From: an uncultured Candidatus Bathyarchaeia archaeon
GTDB taxonomy: Archaea; Thermoproteota; Bathyarchaeia; 40CM-2-53-6
Assembly: GCA_964361545.1 (NCBI GenBank)
Contig: CAYIBO010000002.1
Location: forward strand, 1-32,766
Reading direction: 5' to 3'
DNA: 32,766 nt
Each line of letters begins with the position of its first letter. The stretch's first letter is position 1. Under the pieces are notes generated by a model. That model was not told the DNA's origin. It ran no database searches and saw only the letters and a list, made by a program, of their open reading frames with translations. Positions 18,174 through 25,811 of the stretch are shown in pieces. Made by a program: the position numbers and the translations under genes.

Positions 18174-20051
18174 ATGACAGTCGCTGAAGTCTTCCAAGAG
18201 ATCAGTGCGGCTGACTTCTTCTACCGCAACCGAGACATCGCCGGATTCACCAATCCAACTCGGGCCATCTACTCCTCAGTCCGCGAACTCGTCGAGAACT
18301 CGCTTGATGCATGCGAAACGATCGAGACTCCACCGGACATCTACCTGAGAATCTCACACGAGTCGGGACCATTAGACGGACCCGGAACCTACACACTGAG
18401 AGTGGAAGACAACGGAATCGGGGTCCCGGCTGAAGTAATCCCGTCAGCTTTCGGCCAAGTTCTCTACGGGTCGAAGTACAAGCTGAGACAGACGCGGGGC
18501 ACCTTCGGGCTAGGAGGAAAGATGGCCATACTCTACGGCCAGATAACCACACATTCGGAAGCTAGAATCGTCTCCAGCACGAGTCCAAGAGAGAAGGTGA
18601 CGGAGGTCATATTACGCATAGACATACAGAAAAACAAACCCATCGTCCTAAGGACCAAGCAGCATTCGAACAAGAAACGATGGCGAGGCACGATTATCGA
18701 AATCAAAACCGAGGCTGACTGTGTACGTGCAATTCCAAAAATTCTCGAATACTTGAAACAAACAGCCATCATCGTACCCTACGCTAACATCACCTTCGTC
18801 GACCCCCGCGGCAGGCTCTACCGATTCCTCAGAGGAACGACCAGGGTGCCCAAGGCGCCTGAAGAGACACTGCCACATCCGTACGGCGTCGACGTTGAGA
18901 CCGTTCAAAGGATGCTAGAATTCACGAAGGCACGCACGCTACGTTCTTTCCTGACGACGCATTTTCAGAAGATAGGTAGCACAACGGCCCAACAGTTTCT
19001 CAATCACGCTCGTGTGGAATCCCTCAAAGCCGTAGCGTCAAAATTGGGACTCGACGTTAGGGCGATATTACCTGGAGAAAACAACAAAGGCCCGAGGGAA
19101 GCGAGTGAGAAACCAGTCGCAGAGCAGGAGGCGAAGAAGCGGAGTACGGCGACCGACGGGGAGGGCAAGAAGGGTGCTGGAACAGAAGGAGAAAGCGAAA
19201 CCACCACAAGAAACGCAGTGAGGGGGAGAGAGAGACCGAGAGTAGGGAAGCTTTCGCTTGACGAACAGGCGAAGATACTCGAGAAGGAGATTCGAAAAGC
19301 CGGAGGCAAGATTGAAAGTAGGGCATTCTGGCAAGAAAAGAATCCTAGCAAGCTTACTCCTGATGACATAGTGGAATTCGTCAACTCAGTAAAGACCTTC
19401 GAAGGCCTTCATGCTCCCGACCCAAGTTGCCTCTCGCCCCTAGGCGAGGACCTACTGGCCACTGGCATAAGGAAGGAACTCGAGCTGACCAATGAAGATG
19501 TCAAGGCTGGTTCGACATTTCTGGTGACAAGGCAGCGAGAACCCTCCACGTACTCAGGATTCCCATTCATAGTGGAAGTTGGACTGGCATGTTCGAAGCA
19601 GATCCCGACCGAGGGAGGAATTCTTCTGTTCAGGTTTGCGAACAAGATTCCACTGCTCTTCGACGAAGCCAGTGACGTGTCGTGGAAAGTCGTCAACACA
19701 CTGGTCGACTGGCGAAATTACAGGGTCGTCCCCCGCGAGACCCCACTAGCAGTCTTCGTCCATGTGTGTAGCACCAAGATCCCCTACAAGACTGTTGGGA
19801 AAGAGTTCATCGCGGACAGACCTGAGGTGGAACACGAGATTCTTAACGCGATTAGAGAGGTTGGAAGAAAACTGAAACTATACCTCTCAAGACGGGAACA
19901 CCTTGAACAAGAGAAAAAGAAGCTTGATGTTTTTGGAAGATACCTGCCGAAGGTAGCCGAATTCTCAACCAAACTCTCAAAGGAGAAGAAGGTGCCCGAT
20001 GTCAGCCCCCTACTCAACAAGGTGAGGAAATATGGTGCGGAAGAAAAGTAA
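18174..20051 (+). CDS. top6B: DNA topoisomerase VI subunit B
   Basis: GHKL ATPase blocks: ELVENSLDA, EDNGIGVP, SKYKLRQTRGTFGLGGK. Transducer-domain blocks are also present. It sits directly upstream of top6A and overlaps it by 20 nt. Confidence 0.93.
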   Translation: MTVAEVFQEISAADFFYRNRDIAGFTNPTRAIYSSVRELVENSLDACETIETPPDIYLRISHESGPLDGPGTYTLRVEDNGIGVPAEVIPSAFGQVLYGSKYKLRQTRGTFGLGGKMAILYGQITTHSEARIVSSTSPREKVTEVILRIDIQKNKPIVLRTKQHSNKKRWRGTIIEIKTEADCVRAIPKILEYLKQTAIIVPYANITFVDPRGRLYRFLRGTTRVPKAPEETLPHPYGVDVETVQRMLEFTKARTLRSFLTTHFQKIGSTTAQQFLNHARVESLKAVASKLGLDVRAILPGENNKGPREASEKPVAEQEAKKRSTATDGEGKKGAGTEGESETTTRNAVRGRERPRVGKLSLDEQAKILEKEIRKAGGKIESRAFWQEKNPSKLTPDDIVEFVNSVKTFEGLHAPDPSCLSPLGEDLLATGIRKELELTNEDVKAGSTFLVTRQREPSTYSGFPFIVEVGLACSKQIPTEGGILLFRFANKIPLLFDEASDVSWKVVNTLVDWRNYRVVPRETPLAVFVHVCSTKIPYKTVGKEFIADRPEVEHEILNAIREVGRKLKLYLSRREHLEQEKKKLDVFGRYLPKVAEFSTKLSKEKKVPDVSPLLNKVRKYGAEEK

Positions 20052-21135
20052 AGGCACCATAAAGGAGAGGAAGAAAAGGGTTCTCGCGTCCCTGGAGGAC
20101 CAGGGTCGAAAAGTATACCGTCAACTCCTGAAGGGGGAATTCCCCCATTTCAAGATCCCAAGCAGGTCTGTGTCAAACATAGAGTATGACGAGAAAACGA
20201 GGCAATACATCCTTGGAGAGGGGGAGGTTAAGCGAAGCGCCCGAAATGTAGGACAGATACGGCCATTCACTCAACTTCTCTGGACGGCGATGTTTGCCGA
20301 CGAACTTACACATCAGAACAAGACCAGTACTCTGCGGGACGTGTTCTACTCTGCACAAGCATACGAAATGGACTTCCAAGACCAACAGGAGAGCGACAGC
20401 CTAATCACAGATCTGGAGACAGTAACAGGGTTCTCCCGAGAAGACTTCAAGATATATCCAGAGGAGAGAAGCGCGATTTTCGGAGACCTGACCATCGAAT
20501 ACACGATTCCAGGTTACGAGGGGAGACGTCTCAACCTCACTTCTCACCCTGACGGCGTCTTGATTGGTCCCGCACTGACCACAGCTGAGTTCGTCCCGCC
20601 GGATAAGAGGAAGGTCGACAAAGTAATCGCGATTGAGAAAGGCGGCCTCTTCACAAGATTCATCGAAGAAAGGGTTCACCAGCGGTTCAAAGCGGTGCTC
20701 ATTCATACAGCCGGTCAAGCGCCTAGGGCGACAAGATTCCTCTTACGCCGTCTCAACAAAGAACTCGACATTCCGGTCTACATTTTCACAGACGGAGACC
20801 CGTGGGGAATGCACATTGCAATGGTCATTATCTCCGGCTCCGCCAATGCTGCCCACCTGCGAGACCTCAACACCCCTGATGCTATCTGGGGAGGAGTATG
20901 GGCCACCGACATAGTGGACTACAAACTGCCCAGCGACCCCCTGACAGATCTTGATGTGAAACGGTTGAATGAGCTTGAGAAGGACCCGAGGTACGCAGGC
21001 GACCTTTGGAAGAGGGAGATCGATACATTTCGAAAAATCCGGAAGAAATCCGAACAGGAAGCATTCAGCCGGTACGGTCTTACCTACATAGTCGACGAGT
21101 ATCTGCCCAAGAAGCTGAAACTCAAGTCCAACTAA
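20032..21135 (+). CDS. top6A: DNA topoisomerase VI subunit A (Spo11 family)
   Basis: Blocks LRDVFYSAQ and VIAIEKGGLF, and the Toprim block IFTDGDPWGMHI. Confidence 0.93.
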   Translation: MVRKKSKGTIKERKKRVLASLEDQGRKVYRQLLKGEFPHFKIPSRSVSNIEYDEKTRQYILGEGEVKRSARNVGQIRPFTQLLWTAMFADELTHQNKTSTLRDVFYSAQAYEMDFQDQQESDSLITDLETVTGFSREDFKIYPEERSAIFGDLTIEYTIPGYEGRRLNLTSHPDGVLIGPALTTAEFVPPDKRKVDKVIAIEKGGLFTRFIEERVHQRFKAVLIHTAGQAPRATRFLLRRLNKELDIPVYIFTDGDPWGMHIAMVIISGSANAAHLRDLNTPDAIWGGVWATDIVDYKLPSDPLTDLDVKRLNELEKDPRYAGDLWKREIDTFRKIRKKSEQEAFSRYGLTYIVDEYLPKKLKLKSN

Positions 21136-22400: not shown

Positions 22401-22530
22401 TGGAGAGCGTCCTGAAAGCCGGGCTCGAAGTGGCTGAGCCTCGATAAAAGCGTGTTAACGTAAGTGTCGCACAATGAGAGGTTGTTGTTCTTGAGCGTGT
22501 ATAGCGTCTGGTCCCGGCAACCGTTGCCAT

Positions 22531-22839
22531 CTATACTGCCTCATCTTCCGGAAGAGCCGACGGGTCCGTTGGAATGAAAACTATTCGAGTCCTTTCGGGA
22601 CTCACGGGATTTGTCTCGCGCGAGTTGGTTGCATAGTCTTTTCCGGATAGTGGACGAGTTGCTGGTCTGGGTCTTTTTCGGGCGAATTTCACGGGTCTGG
22701 ATTGACTCCGGGCGTTTTTCCGGGTCCTGAAGTTCCCTGGAAAGTTGCCTGTTCTTAGCGTGGTTTGAAATGCGCCGCTTGGAATTTCAGAATCTGGGCT
22801 GATTCTTCGTTGTATTGCGAGGAGCACTCTGCAAGCCAT
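22531..22839 (-). CDS. candidate basic Arg/Pro-rich protein (102 aa), third ORF of the mini-operon
   Basis: The ATG at 22839-22837 overlaps the RHH stop as TGATG. However, the sequence is low-complexity, and the coding strand is C/A-rich, which suppresses stop codons. Coding status is therefore uncertain. Confidence 0.3.
   Translation of the reverse strand: MACRVLLAIQRRISPDSEIPSGAFQTTLRTGNFPGNFRTRKNARSQSRPVKFARKRPRPATRPLSGKDYATNSRETNPVSPERTRIVFIPTDPSALPEDEAV
22590..22835. repeat. GT-rich element, copy B (apparent paralog of 6341-6571)
   Basis: See copy A. Both copies share the same orientation, anchors and spacing. Confidence 0.4.
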
Positions 22840-22994
22840 CACTTGCAGTATCCTTCCCGCTCCCTGAGCCAGTCCTCGCAGATGACCCTGACCATCTCCT
22901 TCCGGGTCCTGTGATACTTGCGAGCTGTCTCGTTCAGCTTTTTGACCAGCCTTTCGGGCAGGTCCGTAACGATTTTTCGCGTTTTGATGGTCAA
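22839..22994 (-). CDS. ribbon-helix-helix (CopG/Arc/MetJ-like) DNA-binding protein, 51 aa
   Basis: Hand translation gives MTIKTRKIVTDLPERLVKKLNETARKYHRTRKEMVRVICEDWLREREGYCK. This is the classic RHH layout: beta strand KIVTDLPE, then helix, turn, helix. It is below the 60-aa cutoff of the ORF track. The TTG start shares TTGA with the upstream small ORF. Confidence 0.6.
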   Translation of the reverse strand: MTIKTRKIVTDLPERLVKKLNETARKYHRTRKEMVRVICEDWLREREGYCK

Positions 22995-23074
22995 AACCTC
23001 GCGAAAGCCCTGACCTGAGCCTTACAGGCCAGAAGACCTCCAAGAACGCCACCTGCCAATCCTAACCAGAGCAT
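22991..23074 (-). CDS. candidate 27-aa hydrophobic peptide (MLWLGLAGGVLGGLLACKAQVRAFARF)
   Basis: ATG at 23074. The TGA stop overlaps the RHH TTG start (TTGA at 22994-22991). An A/T-rich box sits 27 nt upstream. There is one predicted TM-like segment. The ORF is very short, so this is speculative. Confidence 0.25.
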   Translation of the reverse strand: MLWLGLAGGVLGGLLACKAQVRAFARF

Positions 23075-23100
23075 TTTCTGATCTGCGAGCTGGATAGGCC

Positions 23101-23107
23101 AAATAAT
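23101..23107 (-). promoter_or_regulatory. TATA-like box for the mini-operon
   Basis: The minus strand reads ATTATTT, ending 27 nt upstream of the ATG at 23074. That spacing is expected for a leaderless archaeal mRNA. Confidence 0.3.
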
Positions 23108-23117
23108 GCGTGGAAGG

Positions 23118-23466
23118 CCCCTATAGGGGGTGAGGGTGGCCTGTTTCGCGAGCCATCTCCCCCGGAAGCATACTCATCCCCCTAGAGGGAGAGGGGTGGG
23201 GGGTCAAGACCGCCAGCGCTCCAGCCAAGGATGGACAAGACCCTTCTTGGCCCGCAGATCGAGGAGTAGCTTGGCCAGGGCTTCTGCCACCAGTCGAAAG
23301 TCTCAGTCCTCTCCTTCTCCTGGATTCCGCTTAGAACAAGGCGCTCCAGGACCCTTATCGCTGATAGGTACCCCCCTGGGGGGTCTGTTGCTGCTTCTTA
23401 CGAGCTAGGACCTACCCCCCATGGGGGACCATGGCGGGGGGTCTGTGGTCTGTTGCTACTTCACGA
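23118..23466. repeat. cluster of C(4-6)-N(1-4)-G(4-6) palindromes plus an imperfect direct repeat
   Basis: Palindromes: CCCCTATAGGGG (23118-23129), CCCCCTAGAGGG (23178-23189, imperfect), CCCCCCTGGGGGG (23371-23383) and CCCCCATGGGGG (23416-23427). Direct repeats: GGGGGGTCTGTTGCTGCTTCTTACGA (23378-23403) and GGGGGGTCTGTGGTCTGTTGCTACTTCACGA (23436-23466). Confidence 0.65.
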
Positions 23467-23813
23467 TCCCCTTAGGGTGTTTCCTCCCCAACGAGACTTT
23501 TACCTGGAATTATCGTCGGATTTGCCAGTCTCTGCTTCCTTCCTGGCGGGTCTCTTGTATTCGCTGAACGAGTAGCCTCTTTCCGAAGATTGGCCGATAA
23601 GCAGTACCCCCGCTGAGACGGTATACCATCCCGTTATCGATCACCAAGAAAAGAGACGCCCCTCTCCCTCAGCCTCATTCTACTCTCACTGTTATTGTAC
23701 CTCTCCGGGCCTTACGGATTGTACTCGGCTACCTTGTAGCCTCCGCATGGCGGCCATCAGCTTTCGTCTCTCTCGGATTTTCTACCGGCCGCAGCCGTTT
23801 GGAGATCCCCTGG

Positions 23814-23820
23814 TTAAATA
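23814..23820 (+). promoter_or_regulatory. TATA-like box upstream of the APC-USP permease
   Basis: TTAAATA lies 46 nt before the TTG start at 23867. It is followed by two copies of CCGGAGTCT (23822-23830 and 23849-23857). Confidence 0.3.
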
Positions 23821-23866
23821 GCCGGAGTCTACAACGCCCCCGACCTAACCGGAGTCTGGTCGTACA

Positions 23867-25774
23867 TTGGGCGAGGAAGAGCAGTCCCTCAAGAGGGACA
23901 TTGGCTGGTACGGGTCCTTCTCCATGGGTTATGCTGATGTTGGCGCGAACGTGTTCATAGCCCTTGGGCTGGTTGCACTCTATGCTGGCGGAGCTACGCC
24001 CATCGCCTTTCTGGTAGCATCAGTAACCTATGTGGCCACAGGGTTGGCCTACGCTGAGCTGGCCACCACATACCCCTATGCTGGCGGAGCTCAAGTATAT
24101 TCCATGAAGGCCTTCAACGATCTAGGAGGCTTCGTCGCCGGTTGGGCGGTAATGCTAGATTACACAGTCGACATAGCGCTCTTCTCTCTGGCCGCGGCCG
24201 GTTACCTAAGCTACTTCCTGCCGACGAACATTGTGGACCCAAGCAATCTCAGGACACTCGGGATGCTCGCAGTAGGACTTGTCCTCTTTCTGCTTCTACT
24301 AAATGTCACAGGAATCAGAGGATCCTCCAAGTTTAACGAGATTCTAGTTGCGGTGGGAATCTCGGTGCAAAGCATTGTCCTCGTTGTGTCTCTCGCCCTT
24401 CATTTCGATTGGAACCTCTTCCTTTCACAGCTCCTTAGCCTGGGCGTAAATCAGCCCCGCCCCGGCATCGACTATCTTCTCCCTGTCCACCTGACCTTCC
24501 AGAATTTCATCTACGCGGCCACTCTAGCCATGGCATCCTTCATCGGGATAGAGTCGATCGCACAGGCTGCGGAGGAAACTAAGAAGCCCTACCGGTGGAT
24601 TCCACGCGCCAACAAACTCTCGATCATCTTCGTCCTTATCTTCACAATTGGATTGTCGATCGCCGGAGTAGGGGGCATAGGAGCAGAGGGTCTCGTGCAG
24701 AATATCCACAACCCTGTAACTGCCATGGCGCAGACGATACCGTCAATCGGATTTCTACTCGCGCCAATCGTCGCTTTCACCGGCTTCGCGCTCTGTTACG
24801 TCTCAACAAACACTGGAGTAATCGGAGTTTCAAGGGTCTCCTTCTCTATGGGACGGTACAGACTTCTACCACAATGGTTCTACAAGGTGCACAAGACATT
24901 CCGAACCCCAGTAAGGGCCATTCTGATATTCGGAGTAGCCGGAGCCGCGCTTTCCCTCACAGGGAATCTCGAGCTTGTCGCTGATCTCTACAACTTCGGT
25001 GCTCTCTTATCCTACATCATGGTCAACCTTAGCCTAATCATCCTTCGGAACACAGAGCCCGACACGTACAGACCTTGGAAGGTTCCAGGCGAGATCAATC
25101 TCCGATTGGGCCAGCGTAGAATCATTATCCCCGCAATCAGCGTAATCGGAACAATCAGCTGTACATCCATCTGGCTCTTGATTATTATCTTCCACCCAGC
25201 CGGGAGGTTGCTCGGAGCGTCCTGGCTCCTAGTCGGATTAGCCGGGTTTCTAGTCTACAGAAAACTCCACTCTTTACCAATCATGTCCAAAGAGGGTGGT
25301 AGACAAATCAAGCCAAGTGGCTATGTCATGAATGCCCTCGCTCTTGTCAGGACCCCGGAAGACCCTGATGCCGTCGCCCAAGCGCTATCGAGAGCGTTGG
25401 ACCCACGCTTCAACCTCACCCTCTTCAACGTCATAGACCCAGCATTAGCGACTCCAAGGCCGGGGGAATTCGGACACTACGACTACCTGAAGAAGCTGGA
25501 AGACGCTGAGAAGAGCGACTTGGAAGACATCGCAAAACGACTGAGAGATGCAGGATTCAAGTGCCAAGCGAGGGTAGCTGTTGGCTCTCTGTTCGAAGTG
25601 CTCCGCCAAGAGGCCGAGTCTGAAGCCAACGATGTAATAGTGCTGATAAAGCGAAAAGCAGCGAAAGGGGACGTGGAGAAGGAGAGGATCGATTCCGCCT
25701 ATGCAGCACTCTCCAGATACCCCGGCAAGCTCATGGTTGTCAGGCGAGTGGAGGTACGCGGTAGACGACGGTGA
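23867..25774 (+). CDS. APC-superfamily amino acid permease with C-terminal USP-like cytoplasmic domain
   Basis: The N-terminal ~480 aa are polytopic (AYAELATTYPYAGGAQVY is APC-typical). The C-terminal ~150 aa (ALALVRTPEDP...NDVIVLIKRK) is USP-like. The start is uncertain: TTG 23867 or ATG 23924. Confidence 0.85.
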   Translation: MGEEEQSLKRDIGWYGSFSMGYADVGANVFIALGLVALYAGGATPIAFLVASVTYVATGLAYAELATTYPYAGGAQVYSMKAFNDLGGFVAGWAVMLDYTVDIALFSLAAAGYLSYFLPTNIVDPSNLRTLGMLAVGLVLFLLLLNVTGIRGSSKFNEILVAVGISVQSIVLVVSLALHFDWNLFLSQLLSLGVNQPRPGIDYLLPVHLTFQNFIYAATLAMASFIGIESIAQAAEETKKPYRWIPRANKLSIIFVLIFTIGLSIAGVGGIGAEGLVQNIHNPVTAMAQTIPSIGFLLAPIVAFTGFALCYVSTNTGVIGVSRVSFSMGRYRLLPQWFYKVHKTFRTPVRAILIFGVAGAALSLTGNLELVADLYNFGALLSYIMVNLSLIILRNTEPDTYRPWKVPGEINLRLGQRRIIIPAISVIGTISCTSIWLLIIIFHPAGRLLGASWLLVGLAGFLVYRKLHSLPIMSKEGGRQIKPSGYVMNALALVRTPEDPDAVAQALSRALDPRFNLTLFNVIDPALATPRPGEFGHYDYLKKLEDAEKSDLEDIAKRLRDAGFKCQARVAVGSLFEVLRQEAESEANDVIVLIKRKAAKGDVEKERIDSAYAALSRYPGKLMVVRRVEVRGRRR

Positions 25775-25784
25775 CGTTCCCGAG

Positions 25785-25811
25785 CTAAGATTGTGATTGC
25801 ATCAATCTTAG
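25785..25811. promoter_or_regulatory. perfect 9-bp inverted repeat (CTAAGATTG-N9-CAATCTTAG)
   Basis: It begins 11 nt after the permease stop (TGA 25772-25774) and about 45 nt upstream of the TATA-like box of the next gene. No T-run follows it, so it could be an operator or a hairpin terminator. Confidence 0.4.

Follow-up and report, generated by a model that had tools for sequence, protein, structure and literature searches.

A solitary ribbon-helix-helix gene in a Bathyarchaeia chromosome, probably the survivor of a mobile-element replication module

In the genome of a Bathyarchaeia archaeon, endoQ and a gene for an APC-family permease with a Usp domain (APC-USP permease) are separated by a gap of 1.47 kb. 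The gap lies in a stretch of 32,766 nucleotides (nt) of contig CAYIBO010000002.1 (assembly GCA_964361545.1), which was analyzed as a whole and is called the window here. A first inspection of the sequence (the original prediction) had found three small open reading frames (ORFs) on the minus strand of the gap, a hydrophobic ORF of 27 amino acids (aa; pep27), a ribbon-helix-helix (RHH) protein of 51 aa and a basic ORF of 102 codons (ORF102), and had taken them for an unannotated, overlap-coupled operon. Comparison with related strains and environmental contigs (denoted by L numbers below) indicates that the RHH ORF is a real gene and the only one among the three: conservation and purifying selection beyond chance are seen for it alone. 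It is probably the solitary survivor of a mobile-element replication module, kept in the chromosome as a solo repressor.

The homologs of the RHH protein range from 33 to 98% in identity. A search of 5.8 billion protein clusters revealed four of them at 64-96% identity, and a metagenome scan added at least four further loci, including L086, a 99.7%-identical copy of the whole locus from the Hainich groundwater metagenome. An exhaustive profile search of 1.84 billion representatives yielded only 28 proteins at E ≤ 1e-3, 11 of which reach E ≤ 1e-10, and thus the family is real but narrow. The homolog search that had been recommended with the original prediction has therefore found the gene to be conserved in relatives. 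By exact look-up in databases, the RHH protein, the endoQ product and the gap ORFs are not on record as such. The RHH module, which comprises the gene with a short leader and a few nucleotides past the stop, is the only part of the gap shared by L085 and L154, and L081 shares it as well and then resumes only at an endoQ-proximal block from 22514; the corresponding blastn blocks are 23021-22827 (L081), 23006-22839 (L085) and 23021-22832 (L154).

How strongly is the gene constrained? The ratio of non-synonymous to synonymous substitution rates (dN/dS, or omega) is about 0.04-0.06 in comparison with L085 (85% aa identity; dN 0.084, dS 1.99) and with L081 (four synonymous changes and one non-synonymous change), and it is 0.14 in comparison with L154 (seven synonymous and four non-synonymous changes). 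Each of the other two frames over the gene is interrupted by stops in nearly every homolog, and their omega exceeds the value of the RHH frame in all comparisons and is at least 1 in most. An intact RHH ORF is found in the window as well as in L081, L086 and L154. Between the window and L081, the dS of the RHH gene (0.145) matches that of endoQ (0.165), and therefore the gene has been inherited with the chromosome since the two strains split. For the same pair, omega is 0.06 for RHH and 0.13 for endoQ; the constraint on RHH has been at least as strong as that on endoQ since the split, as judged from five substitutions.

The original prediction had called the middle ORF a textbook RHH protein, and a family profile, Pfam at the family level, an AlphaFold model and Foldseek agree with it: the protein belongs to the CopG/Arc/MetJ superfamily and has the RHH fold. 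Fifteen of 18 family members match the Pfam family RHH_1 (PF01402) at the reporting limit of E ≤ 0.1, the best of them with E 6.8e-9. Against the PDB, the best match of the family profile is EndoAI/MazE (4me7_E, E 7.9e-7), and CopG-family chains are matched with E-values of 0.03-0.4. The AlphaFold (AF2) model, with a predicted local distance difference test (pLDDT) score of 89.9, has an extended N-terminal segment and helices at residues 14-26 and 31-47; the strand is not formed in this model of the monomer, in line with its pairing only in the dimer. The best Foldseek matches are CopG structures (2cpg/1ea4), with TM-scores of 0.74-0.87 and a root-mean-square deviation of 1.2-1.4 Å over 43-44 residues. 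ORF56 of pRN1 (2k9i, 3ft7) is also among the matches, and almost all of the 50 best PDB matches listed are named RHH proteins (CopG, AmrZ, ParD, Arc, omega, NikR, PutA and RHH-type antitoxins).

Elsewhere, members of the RHH family sit beside replication genes. In L082 (64% identity), the stop of RHH (1288-1467) overlaps the start of a gene whose 818-aa product has Prim-Pol, Zn_ribbon_DnaG, D5_N and DUF5906 domains, and in L091 (55% identity) RHH overlaps the gene for a homologous PrimPol protein of at least 683 aa, the two proteins being 64% identical. In L093 (61% identity), RHH overlaps a gene for an AAA_16/AAA_22 ATPase. The overlap is 4 nt in these distant loci, with a PrimPol/D5 primase-helicase gene as the partner in two of them and an AAA ATPase gene in one. 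Upstream in L093, an AbrB/MazE-like gene, 67% identical to its counterpart in L082, overlaps RHH in turn, and L088 carries a protein of the viral family phrog_10048 (E 7e-34). The suggestion that the locus recalls a plasmid- or virus-derived regulatory cassette has thus pointed to the right neighborhood, as the family contigs carry PrimPol-helicase, AAA ATPase and PHROG-family genes. As a separate observation, the order AbrB/MazE-like gene, RHH and replicase (PrimPol-helicase or AAA ATPase) is shared by the environmental elements L082, L091 (also L090 and L092), L093, L087 and L088, and three of these related elements have a small ORF for a CxxC...NHxxWC zinc finger just upstream of RHH.

A trace of the coupling is seen in the window itself. 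The similarity among the strains ends about 12 nt past the RHH stop, where only the TGATG(G) junction is shared, and this junction is the position at which the replicase starts in L082, L091 and L093. In other respects the RHH gene stands alone. When the gap was compared by tblastx with all element loci, a match was found only at 22839-23021, which is RHH, and in tblastn and tblastx searches of the 32.7-kb window the element proteins of L082, L091 and L093 matched nothing but RHH, with no trace of a replicase. Searches of PLSDB, INPHARED and IMG/VR, covering plasmid, phage and viral sequences, gave no matches apart from chance 16-mers.

The gap falls at a synteny breakpoint, a point on which the original prediction had asked for a check. 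In L001, endoQ is directly adjoined by a homolog of the gene at 25793 (L001 5619-6001 versus window 22401-25792), and therefore the gap and the permease gene together represent an insertion or rearrangement relative to L001. Two loci with a 75%-identical permease, L094 and L095, keep the order of permease, gene-25793 homolog and gene-26158 homolog; their upstream neighbors of the permease differ, and the intergenic spacer there is 200-240 nt.

The history that we propose can be outlined as follows. In the distant family members, RHH would head an archaeal mobile-element replication module to which it is translationally coupled by the 4-nt overlap; as a dimer, the RHH protein would bind to an operator within the promoter of its own gene, repress the replication operon and control the copy number, by analogy with orf56/orf904 of pRN1. 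In the Bathyarchaeia chromosome the replication gene would have been lost, leaving RHH orphaned in the non-syntenic gap. The TGATG junction would then be a vestige of the old coupling, and ORF102 would be the chance product of a 312-nt strain-specific segment read from the vestigial ATG. The orphan RHH may regulate its own expression and may also keep related elements silent when they enter. As the gene is under purifying selection at the pace of its host, it has probably been retained as a solo repressor. We infer its descent from a replicase operon, its DNA binding and any present function from these comparisons.

Several points weigh against this reading. By itself, the RHH protein of the window scores 16.5 bits (E 0.008) against Pfam RHH_1, below the cut-off of 20.5. 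An integrase, att repeats, a tRNA or other mobile-element remnants are not detectable in the window. The closest relatives with enough flanking sequence, L085 and L154, have no replicase beside RHH, so that the descent from a replicase operon is drawn from relatives of 55-64% identity: in L085 (85% aa identity) RHH is coupled by overlap to an unrelated 103-aa ORF of no recognized family, and in L154 (92.6% nt identity) it is followed by an uncoupled, helical-looking 138-aa ORF (434-850) with no Pfam match, with no endoQ within 1.3 kb. The L154 locus may be another genomic setting of RHH, or an element in a more complete state. Within the chromosomal lineage, the evidence for selection consists of five substitutions only. 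Moreover, the copy in L084 looks damaged, with a 12-nt in-frame deletion, the substitutions L16P and W42R and an omega of 0.35, which suggests that RHH is decaying in the L084 lineage; the gene is therefore not indispensable.

These points raise the question of whether RHH in the window is itself an inert relic, recently orphaned, decaying, without a present function and simply not yet disrupted in this strain. The damage in L084 fits such a state, as do the flanks, which are a patchwork of indels and replacements among the strains, and the lack of any remaining partner gene in the window. The substitutions speak against it, with four synonymous changes and one non-synonymous change relative to L081 at a dS equal to that of endoQ and an omega of 0.14 relative to L154, and so does the intact ORF in four loci. 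We regard an inert relic as rather unlikely, and a retained repressor as the probable state.

The gap also contains a conserved non-coding core. A stretch of 450 nt (about 23250-23700) is about 3% diverged from the 88%-identical L084, whereas its flanks are 9-14% diverged and the dS of RHH is 0.14. More relatives of the core were sought by way of the permease; the best permease homologs are 74-75% identical, and their upstream regions are different. A cluster of C/G palindromes lies between RHH and the permease gene, and every match to CCCC-N0-6-GGGG in the 32.7-kb window falls within it. A 16-nt direct repeat, GGTCTGTTGCT[G/A]CTTC, occurs at 23382-23397 and 23447-23462, and on the minus strand a pyrimidine run, CCCCCCACCCCTCTCCCTCT, ends beside the imperfect palindrome of the cluster. 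The core has no coding-like ORF, and substitutions in the gap relative to L084 show no 3-nt periodicity; ten stop-to-stop ORFs of the gap (52-101 aa, chosen from 32 of at least 35 aa) gave only noise against Pfam. As for RNA, nothing usable came from Rfam (gathering thresholds for the whole window, E ≤ 10 for the gap) or from a tRNA scan, and the fold z-scores of the core are unremarkable on both strands (-1.15 and -1.10). RNAalifold on the core found no compensatory pairs between two sequences, a number that cannot assess covariation. A signal recognition particle RNA was considered for CCAGGAAGGAAGCAG, which resembles the helix-8 motif, and was rejected, as there is neither an Rfam match nor a complementary strand. 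The palindrome cluster is possibly an operator or iteron array. The core as a whole could be such an array or an RNA from the element that was lost, or no more than a tract of recent recombination. It is tempting to imagine that the orphan RHH and the core, with its C/G palindromes and duplicated 16-mer, have been domesticated as one regulatory unit left behind by a primase-helicase element, a rather improbable proposal; if true, such a unit might serve, for instance, in immunity against related elements.

Could RHH instead have been recruited as a local regulator of endoQ, or be co-transcribed with it? The original prediction had offered such a role for RHH. In the window, L081 and L086 alike, RHH lies next to endoQ on the same strand, and the matching dS values indicate that the two genes were inherited together. 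On the other hand, 80 endoQ loci of other Bathyarchaeia and archaea have no RHH homolog nearby, the closest genome (L001) has just 107 nt upstream of endoQ, and L154 has the same RHH without endoQ. The distance between RHH and endoQ is 438 nt in the window and 331 nt in L081, with unrelated sequence in between. In addition, endoQ retains a conserved 114-nt upstream region of its own with a TATA-like box (TTTTAT, 22449-22444, 44 nt ahead of the endoQ ATG), which is probably the endoQ promoter as far as its sequence tells. Since none of the 80 loci has RHH and endoQ keeps its own upstream region, a dedicated RHH-endoQ partnership is unlikely; read-through transcription from RHH into endoQ is possible. 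Taken as an explanation of the locus, recruitment for endoQ is improbable, and the solitary repressor left from a replication module remains our preferred reading. Homologs of endoQ at 49-55% identity were also encountered on contigs of metagenome-assembled genomes (MAGs) labelled as bacteria (L043, L074 and L076; Acidiferrales, "bacterium" and Saccharibacteria), and these contigs are probably mis-binned archaeal ones.

A model in which the three ORFs form a coupled operon of a membrane peptide, an RHH protein and a basic protein, working as a toxin-antitoxin (TA)-like or regulatory cassette, was the starting point of this analysis. The ORFs, the TTGA and TGATG overlaps, the ATTATTT box and the downstream palindrome were indeed all found where the original prediction had placed them, and its remark that the coupling style recurs in the window holds for other ORF pairs with 4-nt overlaps (e.g., 10559/10562 and 26158/26161). 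Two further findings could speak for the cassette: the best PDB match of the RHH profile is the antitoxin MazE/EndoAI, and L086 keeps all three ORFs, which says little at 99.7% identity. The TTGA-type overlap should carry little weight, as any base other than C ahead of a TGA stop suffices for it. Small ORFs abound, with 75 of at least 20 aa within 4.5 kb, and ORFs of 100-170 codons that are not genes commonly occur within real genes or antisense to them; endoQ alone carries three antisense ORFs of 121-138 aa. The palindrome GGCAACCGTTGCC was examined as a terminator and rejected, since no T-run follows it and its frequency is at the chance level (nine 6-1-6 palindromes observed versus eight expected across the window).

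The comparative data already contradict this three-gene model, as neither flanking ORF is conserved even in relatives of 88-96% identity. ORF102 in all likelihood does not represent a gene. L081 matches the window at 96% identity over 1968 nt that take in endoQ, and the segment forming the body of ORF102 is replaced there by 143 nt of unrelated sequence. L084 and L154 share the L081-type sequence there, and therefore the 312 nt of the window represent a minority, strain-specific state. Among the 5.8 billion clusters, the sole match of ORF102 comes from its own strain (P0005, 99% identity), and its codon score (-0.012) lies below those of all 75 chunks of 100 codons taken from true genes of the window (mean 0.212, standard deviation 0.077, minimum 0.006). 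In a weaker variant of the improbable proposal of a domesticated unit, ORF102 would be a very young gene born de novo on the vestigial coupled start.

The other flanking ORF, pep27, reads as a chance ORF lying across the border of the conserved module and not as a gene. The module starts at about 23021, and the first 53 nt of pep27 differ in L081, L085 and L154, from which the N-terminal two-thirds of the peptide are consequently absent. Among L081, L084, L085 and L154, only L084 keeps pep27, and the 11 substitutions between the two copies amount to 0.5 synonymous and 10.5 non-synonymous ones, so that the purifying selection expected of a gene for a conserved small membrane peptide is not seen. 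Its codon score is -0.049, and the ATTATTT box ahead of it is split by a 12-nt insertion in L084. Neither pep27 nor ORF102 has a match in Pfam, PHROGs or PADLOC; the original statement that they can be assigned to no family is thereby borne out, and its toxin-antitoxin reading loses its partners, as no toxin or defense family is matched. No recognizable toxin is adjacent to RHH, and no pair is conserved together in relatives; the partner coupled to RHH is a replication gene in three distant loci or the unrelated 103-aa ORF in L085, and never a recognized toxin. The cassette of three genes is thus very improbable.

Upstream of RHH, the 5′ flank is a mosaic of small indels among the strains. In L084 (about 850-950), RHH is fused to an upstream frame by an insert of 35 nt with TCAAAACG repeats on either side, resulting in a 75-aa protein (P0003), and L154 (1-120) carries an L084-type piece together with an L081-type leader. 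The +1 frame upstream of RHH shows eight synonymous and three non-synonymous changes relative to L084. This frame was considered as a lost N-terminal extension of RHH and rejected: two of the synonymous changes precede the stop of that frame, and the L084 insert that makes the fusion is absent from the outgroup L085 and is flanked by the TCAAAACG repeats.

Public gene calls exist at the locus, and in this sense the original description "unannotated" does not hold; it does hold for the real RHH gene, which is missing from those gene sets as the wrong frame was called. The calls, of 170 or 173 aa, consist of ORF102 joined to a +1 shadow frame over RHH, and this is the longest ORF in the gap. That such a call from three public assemblies might be the real gene, with the RHH frame as its shadow, can practically be dismissed: its frame has one or two stops in each of the five RHH homologs compared and an omega exceeding that of the RHH frame throughout, the 102 codons of its C-terminal part have no counterpart in L081, L084 and L154, its codon score is 0.001, and it matches no family.

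The features of the gap are collected in Table 1. The window comes from a Bathyarchaeia archaeon. Its endoQ shares 70% identity with the endoQ of MAG BA_24 (L001) and 50-60% with those of many other Bathyarchaeia. Topoisomerase VI subunit A, endoQ and the APC-family permease with a Usp domain were confirmed by Pfam or by homology. In L094 and L095, the region upstream of the permease has a conserved CTGGTTTAATACCACC, which is related to the probable TATA box of the permease gene in the window. The ORF upstream of subunit A, which we take to be subunit B, overlaps the subunit A gene by 20 nt (20032-20051), and the 3′ ends of the convergent subunit A and endoQ ORFs share 4 nt (21132-21135).

Table 1. 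Features in and around the gap between endoQ and the APC-USP permease gene (window coordinates).
Feature	Position	Strand	Remarks
Gap	between endoQ start 22400 (-) and APC-USP permease start 23867 (+)		1466 nt (1.47 kb)
endoQ upstream region, conserved	22401-22514	-	part of 96%-identical L081 block
Strain-specific segment, body of ORF102	22515-22826		312 nt; found only in L086 (99.7% identical)
Palindrome GGCAACCGTTGCC	22516-22528		present; edge of strain-specific segment
ORF102, 102 codons	22531-22839	-	present
Public gene calls, 170/173 aa	22531-23043 (TTG) or 23052 (GTG)	-	P0065 (170 aa, NCBI); P0005, P0064 (173 aa, ENA)
Conserved RHH module	22827-23021	-	gene with its leader (about 27 nt) and a stretch of about 12 nt after the stop, including the putative vestigial coupled ATG
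RHH ORF, 51 aa	22839-22994	-	TTG start; TGA stop 22839-22841
pep27, 27-aa ORF	22991-23074	-	present
ATTATTT box, proposed TATA element	23107-23101	-	27 nt ahead of pep27 ATG
C/G palindrome cluster	23118-23427		largely kept in L084
CCCCTATAGGGGG	23118-23130		palindrome nearest upstream of RHH, a candidate operator site
CCCCCTAGAGGG	23178-23189		imperfect palindrome
CCCCCCTGGGGGG	23371-23383		palindrome
CCCCCCATGGGGG	23415-23427		palindrome
TTAAATA	23814-23820	+	probable permease TATA box

For annotation, the consequence is that the public calls of 170/173 aa hide a genuine 51-aa RHH gene, and that pep27 and ORF102 should not be annotated. The gene represents a small, previously unnamed RHH family, whose distant members are tied to primase-helicase elements in environmental contigs and one copy of which survives as a solitary chromosomal gene in Bathyarchaeia, a group from which, to our knowledge, few mobile elements have been described. 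This is a modest addition to a well-known theme, that of CopG-like repressors of replication operons and orphaned regulators of mobile elements, and anything new might lie in the conserved non-coding core alone.

Three known systems invite comparison. RHH antitoxins (MazE/EndoAI 4me7, ParD 6xrw and CopG-family antidotes) share the fold and the arrangement of a small gene heading an overlapping pair. They differ in having a toxin partner, which is lacking in the window, while the identifiable partners of the present family are replication proteins; furthermore, the RHH protein of the window lacks their typical C-terminal toxin-binding extension, its 51 aa making up little more than a bare RHH domain. 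CopG (RepA) of the streptococcal plasmid pMV158, a bacterial rolling-circle plasmid with the RepB initiator, heads the cop-rep operon and is the prototype of plasmid copy-control RHH proteins. It is the best structural match (2cpg, 1ea4), with 45 aa compared with 51 aa here; however, the sequence identity is about 20%, and no replication gene is adjacent to RHH in the window.

The third is pRN1 of Sulfolobus islandicus, in which orf56, encoding an RHH transcriptional repressor that controls the copy number, and orf904, encoding a PrimPol-helicase, are cotranscribed (PMC4234260). Its counterpart is seen in the family loci L082 and L091, in which RHH lies directly upstream of a gene for a PrimPol and superfamily 3 (SF3) helicase protein, and the pyrimidine run of the gap loosely recalls the C-stretch upstream of orf56 (PMC4234260). 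The hosts differ (Bathyarchaeia versus Sulfolobales), and the likeness to ORF56 is one of fold only, with 17-18% identity in the structural alignment. A coupled replicase as in pRN1 is present in L082, L091 and L093 and absent from the window, where RHH is chromosomal and solitary. We therefore file the window locus as a relic of a pRN1-type module rather than as a member of that type.

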